From the NCBI RefSeq assembly GCF_055900595.2, contig NZ_CM148325.1: DNA of 64,000 nt, one strand, 5' to 3'. A program made the position numbers and the translations under genes. The notes below the pieces were generated by a model, which was not told the origin of the DNA, ran no database searches, and was given only the letters and a program-made list of their open reading frames with translations. Shown piece by piece: positions 16,467 through 53,668 of the stretch (positions are counted from its first letter, which is position 1; every line of letters begins with the position of its first letter).

Positions 16467-16997
16467 ATGGCTATCACTGGCATCTTTTTCGGCAGCGACA
16501 CCGGTAATACCGAAAATATCGCAAAAATGATTCAAAAACAGCTTGGTAAAGACGTTGCCGATGTCCATGACATTGCAAAAAGCAGCAAAGAAGATCTGGA
16601 AGCATATGACATTCTGCTGCTGGGCATCCCAACCTGGTATTACGGCGAAGCGCAGTGTGACTGGGATGACTTCTTCCCGACTCTCGAAGAGATTGATTTC
16701 AATGGCAAACTGGTTGCGCTGTTTGGTTGTGGCGACCAGGAAGATTACGCTGAATACTTCTGTGACGCATTGGGCACCATCCGCGACATCATTGAACCGC
16801 GCGGTGCAACCATCGTTGGTCACTGGCCAACTGCGGGCTACCATTTCGAAGCATCAAAAGGTCTGGCAGATGACGACCACTTTGTCGGTCTGGCTATCGA
16901 CGAAGACCGTCAGCCGGAACTGACCGCTGAACGTGTAGAAAAATGGGTTAAACAGATTTCTGAAGAATTGCATCTCGACGAAATTCTCAATGCCTGA
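16467..16997 (+). CDS. fldA: Flavodoxin 1
   Basis: ORF 16350-16997; start placed at [23 protein letters not shown] (176 aa) with the flavodoxin FMN-binding signature. Confidence 0.95.
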
Positions 16998-17202
16998 TGT
17001 GATGCGGCGTAGACTCATGTCTACGCCGTATTAATAGATAATGCCAATCAAAATAATTGCTACAAATTTGTAACTTTTGCTGTTGTACCTGTACAATGTC
17101 CCGGTGTTCAAGTGGCCTTGCCGTTGTAAATGTAAGCTGTGCCACGTTTTTATTAACAATATTTGCCAGGGACTTGTGGTTTTCATTTAGGCGTGGCAAT
17201 TC

Positions 17203-17221
17203 TATAATGATACGCATTATC
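17203..17221 (+). promoter_or_regulatory. Fur box in the fur/uof promoter region
   Basis: tataatgatacgcattatc closely matches the 19-bp Fur consensus GATAATGATAATCATTATC; about 65 bp upstream of fur. Confidence 0.65.
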
Positions 17222-17293
17222 TCAAGAGCAAATTCTGTCACTTCTCCTAATGAAGTGAACCGCTTAGTAACAGGACAGATTCCGCATGACTGA
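17207..17293 (+). CDS. uof: uof leader peptide (upstream ORF of fur), 28 codons
   Basis: MIRIISRANSVTSPNEVNRLVTGQIPHD read in frame; its stop TGA (17291-17293) overlaps the fur ATG (17286). Confidence 0.7.
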   Translation: MIRIISRANSVTSPNEVNRLVTGQIPHD

Positions 17294-17732
17294 TAACAAT
17301 ACCGCCCTAAAGAAAGCTGGCCTGAAAGTAACGCTTCCTCGTTTAAAAATCCTGGAAGTTCTTCAGGAGCCGGACAACCATCACGTCAGTGCGGAAGATT
17401 TATACAAACGTCTGATCGATATGGGTGAAGAAATTGGTCTGGCTACGGTATATCGCGTACTGAACCAGTTTGACGACGCTGGTATCGTCACCCGCCACAA
17501 TTTTGAAGGCGGTAAATCCGTATTTGAACTGACACAGCAACATCACCACGATCACCTGATCTGCCTCGACTGCGGCAAGGTTATCGAATTTAGTGATGAT
17601 TCCATCGAAGCGCGTCAGCGTGAAATTGCCGCAAAACATGGCATTCGCCTGACTAACCACAGTCTCTATCTTTACGGTCACTGTGCCGAAGGCGATTGCC
17701 GCGAAGATGAGCACGCGCACGAAGGCAAATAA
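17286..17732 (+). CDS. fur: Ferric uptake regulator
   Basis: 148-aa ORF MTDNNTALKKAGLKVTLPRLKILEVLQ... with a His-rich C-terminus. Confidence 0.98.
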   Translation: MTDNNTALKKAGLKVTLPRLKILEVLQEPDNHHVSAEDLYKRLIDMGEEIGLATVYRVLNQFDDAGIVTRHNFEGGKSVFELTQQHHHDHLICLDCGKVIEFSDDSIEARQREIAAKHGIRLTNHSLYLYGHCAEGDCREDEHAHEGK

Positions 17733-17747
17733 GCCAGTCTGAACGAG

Positions 17748-17776
17748 AAAAGCCAACCTGCGGGTTGGCTTTTTTA
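17748..17776 (+). terminator. Intrinsic terminator after fur
   Basis: aaagccaacc-tgcg-ggttggctt followed by ttttttat. Confidence 0.75.
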
Positions 17777-17815
17777 TGCAAGGGAAATAAGAAAAGCGAG
17801 AGTTACAGCTCTCAC

Positions 17816-44826: not shown

Positions 44827-45762
44827 ATGGCACTGCCAATTCTGTTAGATTGCGATCCAGGTCATGACGACGCTATCGCAATAGTTCTCGCCCTCGCCTC
44901 ACCAGAGCTTGATGTCAAAGCAATTACGTCTTCCGCCGGAAACCAGACACCAGAAAAAACCTTACGCAATGTTCTGCGTATGCTGACCTTGCTTAATCGC
45001 ACCGATATTCCGGTAGCAGGCGGCGCGGTAAAACCATTAATGCGTGATTTGATTATCGCGGACAATGTGCACGGCGAAAGCGGTCTCGACGGCCCTGCAT
45101 TACCGGAACCGACGTTCGCACCGCAAAACTGTACGGCGGTGGAGTTGATGGCGAAAACGCTGCGTGAAAGTGCGGAACCTGTCACGATTGTTTCTACCGG
45201 ACCGCAAACTAACGTTGCCTTGCTGCTCAATAGCCACCCGGAACTGCATAGCAAAATCGCCCGAATCGTGATTATGGGCGGCGCAATGGGGATTGGTAAC
45301 TGGACGCCAGCCGCCGAGTTTAATATTTATGTTGACCCGGAAGCGGCAGAAATTGTCTTCCAGTCAGGGATCCCGGTGGTGATGGCCGGTCTGGATGTTA
45401 CTCACAAAGCGCAAATTTACGTTGAGGACACCGAGCGTTTCCGCGCGATTGGCAACCCTGTTTCAACCATTGTTGCCGAACTGCTGGATTTCTTCCTCGA
45501 ATATCATAAAGACGAAAAATGGGGCTTTGTTGGCGCACCGCTGCATGACCCATGCACCATCGCCTGGCTGTTGAAACCAGAGTTGTTTACCACTGTTGAG
45601 CGCTGGGTTGGCGTGGAAACACAAGGGAAATATACCCAGGGTATGACGGTTGTTGATTATTATTATCTGACCGGCAATAAACCGAATGCTACTGTAATGG
45701 TCGATGTTGATCGTCAGGGCTTTGTTGATTTACTGGCTGATCGTCTGAAATTTTACGCTTAA
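44827..45762 (+). CDS. rihA: Pyrimidine-specific ribonucleoside hydrolase RihA
   Basis: ORF 44794-45762; start placed at [19 protein letters not shown] (the DxDxxxDD nucleoside hydrolase motif), 311 aa. Confidence 0.93.
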
Positions 45763-52563: not shown

Positions 52564-52684
52564 ACTACATTGCGAGACTCAGTTATTTATACTTTTCTGA
52601 CGCAACATAATACGCATAAAATAAGGCTTACGCAAAAATGGAATACATAAAAATATAATATGTTTTATCTACAACCATAAGGAA

Positions 52685-53668
52685 ATGATAATGATTTTTA
52701 CGTCAAGTTGCTGCGATAATTTATCAATAGATGAGATTATCGAACGTGCTGAAAAAGGCGATTGCGAGGCTCAATATATTGTTGGGTTTTATTATAATCG
52801 CGATAGCGCAATTGACTCTCCGGACGACGAAAAGGCCTTTTACTGGCTGAAGCTGGCCGCTGAGCAAGGTCATTGTGAAGCACAATATTCCTTAGGGCAA
52901 AAGTATACCGAGGATAAAAGCCGTCATAAAGATAATGGGCAAGCCATCTTTTGGCTGAAAAAAGCTGCCCTACAAGGCCATACTTTCGCTTCCAACGCCC
53001 TTGGCTGGATACTGGATCGTGGAGAAGACCCCAACTATAAAGAAGCGGTTGCCTGGTATCAGATAGCCGCGGAGAGCGGAATGTCTTATGCGCAAAATAA
53101 TCTTGGGTGGATGTACAGAAATGGCAACGGAGTCACACAAGATTATGCGCTGGCATTTTTCTGGTACAAACAAGCTGCATTGCAAGGCCATAGTTACGCA
53201 CAAGACAATCTGGCCGATCTTTATGAAGACGGTAAAGGTGTTGCCCAAAACAAAGCTCTTGCCGCATTCTGGTATTTGAAAAGCGCACAGCAAGGTAATC
53301 GGCACGCTCAATTTCAAATTGCGTGGGATTATAACGCTGGCGAAGGGGTTGACCAGGACTATAAGCAAGCAATGTACTGGTATCTGAAGGCTGCCGCTCA
53401 GGAAAGCGTCGGCGCTTACGTTAACATCGGCTATATGTATAAACACGGTCAAGGCGTTGAGAAGGATTATCAGGCCGCCTTTGAATGGTTTACGAAAGCC
53501 GCTGAATGCGATAATGCCACTGCCTGGTATAACCTTGCCATTATGTATCATTACGGAGAAGGAAGACCTGTCGATCTCCGACAGGCTCTCGATCTGTATC
53601 GTAAAGTTCAGTCATCCGGTACCAGGGATGTCAGTCAAAAAATCCGTGAGATTGAAGATTTACTGTAG
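52685..53668 (+). CDS. ybeQ: Sel1-repeat protein YbeQ
   Basis: 327-codon ORF with about eight consecutive Sel1-type repeats (…A-x-x-W-Y-x-K-A-A-x-Q-G…). Confidence 0.85.
   Translation: MIMIFTSSCCDNLSIDEIIERAEKGDCEAQYIVGFYYNRDSAIDSPDDEKAFYWLKLAAEQGHCEAQYSLGQKYTEDKSRHKDNGQAIFWLKKAALQGHTFASNALGWILDRGEDPNYKEAVAWYQIAAESGMSYAQNNLGWMYRNGNGVTQDYALAFFWYKQAALQGHSYAQDNLADLYEDGKGVAQNKALAAFWYLKSAQQGNRHAQFQIAWDYNAGEGVDQDYKQAMYWYLKAAAQESVGAYVNIGYMYKHGQGVEKDYQAAFEWFTKAAECDNATAWYNLAIMYHYGEGRPVDLRQALDLYRKVQSSGTRDVSQKIREIEDLL

Follow-up and report, generated by a model that had tools for sequence, protein, structure and literature searches.

Features of the fldA–fur region

The stretch of DNA analyzed here (the window, 64 kb in length) carries, near 17.2 kb, the gene order ybfF, ybfE, fldA, fur, followed by chiQ and chiP on the opposite strand. 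The source of the window is E. coli. fldA and fur are separated by a 288-bp intergenic region, and the short open reading frame (ORF) uof lies between them, directly upstream of fur. The features of the locus are as follows:

16467–16997: fldA (ORF map)
17068–17097, plus strand: candidate upstream promoter ("Puof"), TTGTAA-18 nt-TACAAT, 9/12 in a consensus scan
17180–17208, plus strand: proximal fur promoter, TTTTCA-17 nt-TATAAT, 10/12 in the consensus scan
17190–17200, plus strand: predicted upstream RyhB contact (cofold and local duplex with RyhB nt 50–58, −11.0 kcal/mol)
17203–17221, unstranded: Fur box (Fur operator), TATAATGATACGCATTATC (= tataatgatacgcattatc), from consensus match and weight matrix
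17207–17293, plus strand: uof (b4637 homologue), 28-codon fur leader ORF with Pro14 (ORF map, K-12 alignment, RefSeq)
17225–17240, plus strand: predicted core RyhB site, uof codons 7–12 (local duplex with RyhB nt 37–48)
17238–17258, plus strand: leader hairpin, uof codons 11–18, TCACTTC / loop TCCTAAT / GAAGTGA (folds and covariation)
17272–17275, plus strand: fur Shine-Dalgarno core AGGA, 10 nt before the ATG (sequence)
17286–17732, plus strand: fur coding sequence, 148 aa (ORF map and K-12 annotation)

With these elements, the region is a textbook autoregulatory locus that RefSeq already annotates, and the finding itself adds nothing new: a fur leader with uof and a Fur box is already known. 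The orthologous ORF of K-12 MG1655 is listed in RefSeq as uof, b4637, "RyhB-regulated fur leader peptide", and "uof: fur leader peptide" is annotated beneath the match in E. coli genomes. An earlier reading of this DNA (the sequence-only reading) had identified a uof/fur leader and proposed an alignment with the K-12 fur leader as a check. That alignment, with 340 of 341 aligned bases identical and b4637 at the same ORF, confirms the identification; the sole mismatch, C17246 (T in K-12), replaces the TCT (Ser) of uof codon 14 with CCT (Pro).

The uof–fur leader of E. coli K-12 was reportedly described by Vecerek, Moll and Blasi (2007, EMBO J 26:965). The present locus shares with it the arrangement fldA-uof-fur-chiQ, the same 28-codon ORF (86 of 87 nt and 27 of 28 amino acids), and an identical Fur box, promoter hexamers, RyhB complement (GAGCAA...TGTC) and 8-nt uof/fur overlap. 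It differs in carrying Pro14 instead of Ser14, with the loss of one UCU Ser codon, at a loop base of the leader hairpin. C17246 is a common minor allele: exact-word searches of the 5426 complete E. coli genomes recovered C17246 in 393 and the K-12 allele in 4827. The 771-bp fldA–fur segment was found in 5424 of these 5426 genomes at 95–100% identity, with no match in the other two; among 5427 matches to the fldA-uof-fur segment, one came from a plasmid record, and two copies occurred in a few genomes.

The Fur box and the fur promoters

The Fur box matches the 19-bp consensus GATAATGATAATCATTATC at 16 of 19 positions and is the only match with at most three mismatches on either strand of the window. 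From 100 dinucleotide shuffles of the window, two of which contained any match, the chance expectation for such a site is 0.02 per window. Under the same scoring, control Fur boxes from K-12 reach 16 (fepD-entS), 15 and 15 (fepB-entC), 13 (fepA-fes) and 16 (ryhB) of 19, placing the fur site within or above the 13–16/19 range of these operators. All are 19-bp, AT-rich, similar to the consensus and overlapping a core promoter; the fur box differs from the others in lying on the regulator's own promoter and in containing the start codon of a leader ORF (ATG 17207–17209). With a weight matrix built from seven sites of known Fur-regulated promoters, none of them from fur, the site scored 16.3 bits and ranked second among 127,964 positions (z 4.7), a score from a crude matrix that was also attained somewhere in 4 of 30 block-shuffled windows. 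The sequence-only reading, which had claimed a near-consensus Fur box overlapping the uof start and suggested a weight-matrix scan, thus holds on both points, and the site did not fall below threshold in that scan. The range it had noted, 17194–17293, covers the box and uof, leaving out the −35 hexamer (17180–17185) and part of the predicted RyhB contact at 17190–17200.

The box also overlaps the core promoter: TATAAT at 17203–17208, the −10 hexamer of the 10/12 promoter match, lies inside it and extends over the A and T of the uof ATG. The "Fur box" might accordingly be read as an AT-rich −10 element that resembles the consensus by chance, with no action of Fur at this locus, a reading favored by the presence of TATAAT within the box and by the shuffled windows that reach the same crude matrix score. 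We consider it very improbable, given how rarely a 16/19 match is expected per window and that the fur site equals or beats the ryhB, entS, entC and fes boxes. Furthermore, the distal half of the box, CGCATTATC, which a −10 element does not need, is largely conserved across genera, and Fur autoregulation has been reported (PMC11302051, PMC12683245, PMC7867234).

Several other Fur-like sites were seen in the window. The one at 17037–17055 (14/19) was not taken as an operator, its orthologues scoring 4–13 bits against 18.6–23.4 bits for the training sites, and more probably belongs to the conserved upstream promoter region. The top score of the small Fur matrix in the window, 19.8 bits, belongs to GGAAATGATAATGATTTTT at 52681–52699 (14/19 to the consensus), which covers the start codon of the ORF 52685–53668 at the ybeQ/ybeR junction; it could be no more than an AT-rich gene start, and we know of no link between this site and Fur. 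On the minus strand, a Fur-box-like 19-mer, GATAATAATAATCAACAAC, at 45649–45667 matches the consensus at 15 of 19 positions and scores 13.8 bits.

The proximal promoter is the best promoter match in the region, and its segments GTTTTCAT and TATAATGA are conserved in the cross-species alignment. Transcription from it would probably start near 17214–17217, inside uof, which is where Pfur and its start sites have been placed in published work (PMC6191717, PMC7867234). Because Pfur starts inside uof, transcripts of the Fur-repressed proximal promoter should lack the uof AUG, so that translational coupling would be confined to transcripts from the upstream promoter or to fldA read-through.

The candidate upstream promoter would initiate near 17104 and give a transcript that includes the uof AUG. 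CTGTACAAT (17089–17097), which holds its TACAAT −10 hexamer, is invariant in 23 aligned Enterobacteriaceae species. A uof promoter and a +1uof upstream of uof have been reported (PMC6191717, PMC7867234), and the hexamers TTGTAA/TACAAT at 17068–17097 presumably correspond to this Puof. A strongly conserved block at 17031–17097 (ATTAATAGATAA..CAATCAAAATAATTGCTACAAATTTGTAAC...CTGTACAAT), which includes both the Fur-like site at 17037–17055 and the invariant TACAAT, is probably the upstream "Puof" promoter region. Directly after the fldA stop, a stem-loop at 17006–17027 (GGCGTAGAC / TCAT / GTCTACGCC) has arms that covary between species, for example GGCGCAAAG...TTTGCGCC. The stem is followed by TATTAATAG, with no T run, and is therefore probably a leaky fldA terminator or a stabilizer, which would suit the known co-transcription of fldA and fur.

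The uof frame and its overlap with fur

uof runs uninterrupted from ATG 17207–17209 through 28 sense codons (MIRIISRANSVTSPNEVNRLVTGQIPHD) to TGA 17291–17293, in agreement with the 28-codon upstream ORF (uORF) that had been claimed. The accompanying claim that the uof stop codon overlaps the fur ATG is wrong: the fur ATG is at 17286–17288, and the uof TGA lies 2 nt downstream of it, over fur codons 2–3 (ATG ACT GAT), so that the two ORFs overlap by 8 nt (ATGACTGA). A strict stop/start overlap (ATGA or TAATG) is absent at uof–fur; the ATGA form occurs in seven other species. The overlap of the 3' end of uof with the fur start is a geometry for coupling, and passages in PMC7534054, PMC12683245 and PMC11550727, citing Vecerek 2007, describe fur translation as coupled to the 28-codon uof.

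The AGGA core of the fur Shine-Dalgarno sequence sits in an almost invariant block of the cross-species alignment, AACAGGAC...CCGCATGACTGA. The leader folds showed no strong occlusion of the fur ribosome-binding site, with weak GGA/UCC pairing only, and such occlusion as the cause of coupling is unsupported by them. As a whole, the leader was no more stable than its shuffles (z 0.27 for the short and 0.12 for the long transcript).

The arrangement resembles PhrS-uof-pqsR of Pseudomonas and GcvB-thrL, in which translation of a short uORF sets that of the downstream regulator and an sRNA acts on the uORF (PMC8395346, PMC7534054). PhrS differs in that it activates by opening structure, whereas RyhB represses, and E. 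coli fur is distinct from both systems in having its proximal promoter inside the uORF, so that coupling is possible on some transcripts of the locus and not on others.

Predicted pairing with RyhB

According to passages in PMC7534054, PMC12683245 and PMC11550727, RyhB blocks initiation at uof and thereby lowers Fur, ryhB itself being Fur-repressed. The G44C/C45G mutant of RyhB abolishes repression of uof and fur, and RyhB reduced the short fur mRNA, not the uof-fur mRNA (PMC6191717); the published RyhB–fur model has been described as not computationally predictable (PMC3018821).

We computed duplexes between K-12 RyhB, full-length or seed, and the 231-nt leader using RNAduplex. The predicted core duplex, the best of the local pairings, has an energy of −11.9 kcal/mol, which drops to −7.3 kcal/mol for the G44C/C45G mutant (4.6 kcal/mol lost). 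In it, GAGCAA at 17226–17231 pairs with RyhB U42–C47 as a 6-bp helix (GAGCAA/UUGCUC) with G44 and C45 in the middle. A cofold predicts two contacts, 17190–17200 and 17226–17231, which bracket the uof start codon, the first of them lying 7–17 nt before the uof AUG, where a ribosome-binding site would sit. The two UUGC repeats of RyhB could pair in this manner with GCAA motifs flanking the uof AUG (17190–17200 and 17226–17235). The duplex energies were no better than those of shuffled leaders (143 of 300 and 291 of 300 shuffles at least as good), and the computed pairing is therefore consistent with the published mutants without being independent evidence. GAGCAA is confined to Escherichia; most other genera have GTGCAA or GTGCAT.

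uof across Enterobacterales

To compare uof between species, we used 80 Enterobacterales loci from a Fur scan with one genome per species, in which the Fur proteins are 90–100% identical, and sought TATAATGA within 130 nt of fur. It was present in 72 of the 80 species, and the ORFs opened by its ATG fall into the following classes:

ends at +5 as in E. coli, 28–30 codons: 36 species
ends on the fur ATG (ATGA): 7 species
in the fur frame, no stop: 4 species
without the +5 stop, ends at +68: 1 species
stops at least 18 nt upstream of fur: 24 species
no TATAATGA box: 8 species

The upstream-stopping uORFs include those of Salmonella arizonae (−30), Klebsiella oxytoca and Raoultella (−39) and a 4-codon MRRK in Pantoea; in Salmonella arizonae, Klebsiella and Atlantibacter they are ORFs of 13–20 codons that end 18–39 nt upstream. 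Three members of genera that elsewhere retain the E. coli-type frame (Citrobacter, Enterobacter, Pluralibacter) have lost it through 1-nt changes: Citrobacter sedlakii, Enterobacter sp. Bisph1 and a Pluralibacter MAG.

Two of the classes have particular consequences for fur itself. In Enterobacter asburiae INSAq146 (L045:1201-1212), fur codon 2 is ACA, elsewhere ACT, which removes the uof stop and yields a 49-codon uORF reaching 68 nt into fur, unique among the 80 species. In Buttiauxella, Dryocola and Enterobacter sp. R1 (L056, L057, L059, L062), the TATAATGA ATG is in the fur frame with no stop in between, and the Fur of these four loci would be 22–23 residues longer on paper, if that ATG were transcribed and used.

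Where the E. coli spacing is retained, the uof frame is open and the other two frames are closed in 24 of 24 distinct sequences, and the 28-, 29- and 30-codon variants differ in length by whole codons. Entropy by codon position is 0.86/0.51/0.73 in uof codons 5–15, with no excess at the third position, and 0.07/0.07/0.23 in codons 16–28, with a weak third-position excess; the fur control gives 0.04/0.01/0.75. Judging from these alignments, part of the family thus seems to maintain the uof frame, whereas the peptide sequence is not conserved.

A covarying hairpin inside uof

The leader hairpin consists of the arms TCACTTC (17238–17244) and GAAGTGA (17252–17258) and a 7-nt loop, which is the most variable spot of the leader (codons 14–15) and has C17246 as its second base. 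The stem formed in both single-sequence folds. In an anchor test on 81 sequences, the 3' arm was placed by its ungapped spacing from the fur ATG (−28), and at least six contiguous pairs to a 5' arm just upstream formed in 51 of 81, compared with 0–4 for non-overlapping slid anchors. Stems are compensatory between genera, namely TCACTTC/GAAGTGA, ACTTCCG/CGGAAGT, TTGCTCC/GGAGCGA, CGCTCA/TGAGCG and GCCC/GGGC. A covariance-model alignment of 59 orthologous hits, with 1000 column shuffles as the control, had 93.7% of stem cells paired (slid partners, 30–52%; shuffle maximum, 89.3%) and two-sided changes at 5 of 7 hairpin pairs; this alignment is fitted to the structure, and the anchor test is the more independent of the two. 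RNAalifold on a MAFFT alignment of 52 leaders recovered no more than 3 invariant pairs; the variable-length loop was gapped in that alignment, and the hairpin went undetected as a result.

Across Enterobacteriaceae, the hairpin is kept with or without an intact uof frame, and the frame-shifting 1-nt differences of four loci (L005, L014, L017, L027) fall in its loop. There was no Rfam match in 17100–17300 at E≤1. The papers searched do not mention the hairpin, which may already be drawn in the original structure-probing papers. In E. coli and Citrobacter, the loop and 3' arm (17250–17258) also read ATG AAG TGA, which makes a mini-ORF of two codons that shares the reading frame of fur and lies 36 nt upstream of it; where loops are 1 nt shorter, the TGA of this mini-ORF is the stop of the uORF that begins at the Fur-box ATG (−30).

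From these comparisons, selection on the middle of uof would act mainly on the hairpin at 17238–17258, which separates the RyhB site from the fur ribosome-binding site, and the conservation pattern of this part of the leader is probably explained by the covarying hairpin and not by a peptide. A stronger form of this proposal, under which the strongest selection anywhere within "uof" acts on the hairpin rather than on peptide or frame, the coupled uORF being lineage-restricted and easily lost and the hairpin an undescribed cis element, is one that we put forward tentatively and hold to be possible rather than probable.

Coding frame, RNA element or attenuator

The same comparisons bear on an alternative in which uof is largely incidental as a coding frame and the leader acts mainly as RNA: the ATG would be conserved as part of the −10/Fur-box TATAATGA, RyhB/Hfq-directed decay of the short fur mRNA and the hairpin would account for regulation, and coupling would contribute little in vivo. 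Consistent with it, TATAATGA is retained in 72 of 80 species irrespective of the ORF that it opens, be it MRRK in Pantoea or a stretch in the fur frame in Buttiauxella, and the hairpin is likewise retained regardless of frame, the frame-shifting differences of L005, L014, L017 and L027 lying in its loop. The lack of a coding signature in codons 5–15 points in the same direction, as does the start of Pfur inside uof, together with the decrease of the short fur but not the uof-fur mRNA caused by RyhB (PMC6191717). However, coupling and the RyhB block of uof initiation come from experiments, as far as these are summarized in PMC7534054 and PMC12683245, and the alignments also speak against it: in each of the 24 distinct sequences that keep the E. 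coli spacing only the uof frame is open, length variants differ by whole codons, the uORF of seven more species terminates on the fur ATG (ATGA), likewise a coupling geometry, and codons 16–28 show the weak third-position excess (0.07/0.07/0.23). Weighing the two sides, we regard a leader that is mainly RNA as unlikely.

A short leader ORF that contains a hairpin also invites comparison with attenuation leaders of the trpL/hisL type, in which the hairpin would serve as a terminator or anti-terminator under ribosome stalling. uof is among the EcoCyc "leader peptides" (PMC7815308), iron-responsive decoding of particular uof codons has been mentioned (PMC11550727), and uof shares with trpL, hisL and ivbL a short ORF upstream of the regulated gene and a hairpin within the leader. 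Unlike those leaders, uof lacks an intrinsic terminator, a U tract and alternative pairing, and it overlaps the downstream start, which the ORFs of trpL, hisL and ivbL do not. Specifically, 0 terminator-like sites were found in 16950–17800, the hairpin is followed by ACCGCTTAGTAAC with no U run, RNAalifold with its 3 invariant pairs gave no covarying, mutually exclusive alternative helices, and uof has no run of any one regulatory codon. With neither a U tract nor a terminator-like site, attenuation through the hairpin is unlikely in the extreme, and we rejected this model.

Model of the locus and implications for fur control

Our preferred reading, to which we assign a probability of about 85%, is that the region is the E. 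coli fur promoter and leader, with autoregulation, uof coupling and control by RyhB. In this model, Fe-Fur would bind the box at 17203–17221 and repress the proximal promoter, as described in the literature. On long transcripts that include the uof AUG, ribosomes terminating at 17291–17293 would, again following published work, re-initiate at the fur AUG 5 nt upstream, so that Fur synthesis would follow uof translation. RyhB, made when Fur is inactive, would pair around the uof start and thereby reduce translation of uof and hence of fur, as the literature has it. Transcripts from the box-containing promoter, which we infer to start inside uof, near 17215, would be uncoupled and retain only the downstream RyhB site, and coupling would be limited to transcripts from Puof or fldA read-through. 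The reported decrease of the short fur mRNA only (PMC6191717) agrees with a short transcript that keeps the downstream RyhB site. Weighing against the model as a whole are that same mRNA result, the RyhB duplex energies that shuffled leaders equal, the restriction of GAGCAA to Escherichia, the retention of the E. coli-type uORF in no more than 36 of 80 species, the absence of a third-position excess in codons 5–15, and leader folds that neither strongly occlude the fur ribosome-binding site nor exceed shuffles in stability.

For researchers working on the Fur/RyhB circuit, the point of note is that transcripts of the Fur-repressed promoter are likely to be without the uof AUG. The hairpin comes just after the RyhB site, approximately 23 nt from where the short transcript is predicted to begin, and from this position it may serve as an Hfq/RyhB platform or as a stabilizing element. 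If the tentative proposal of selection on the hairpin is true, the element could be, for example, such a platform, or a stabilizer close to where the short Pfur transcript begins. The comparison of uof and fur across species also suggests simple experiments on the uof-dependent share of Fur synthesis. The coupled-uORF model is often generalized, yet fewer than half of the Enterobacterales species sampled have the E. coli-type frame, and, should that proposal hold, the E. coli-type coupled uORF would not be a general feature of fur control.
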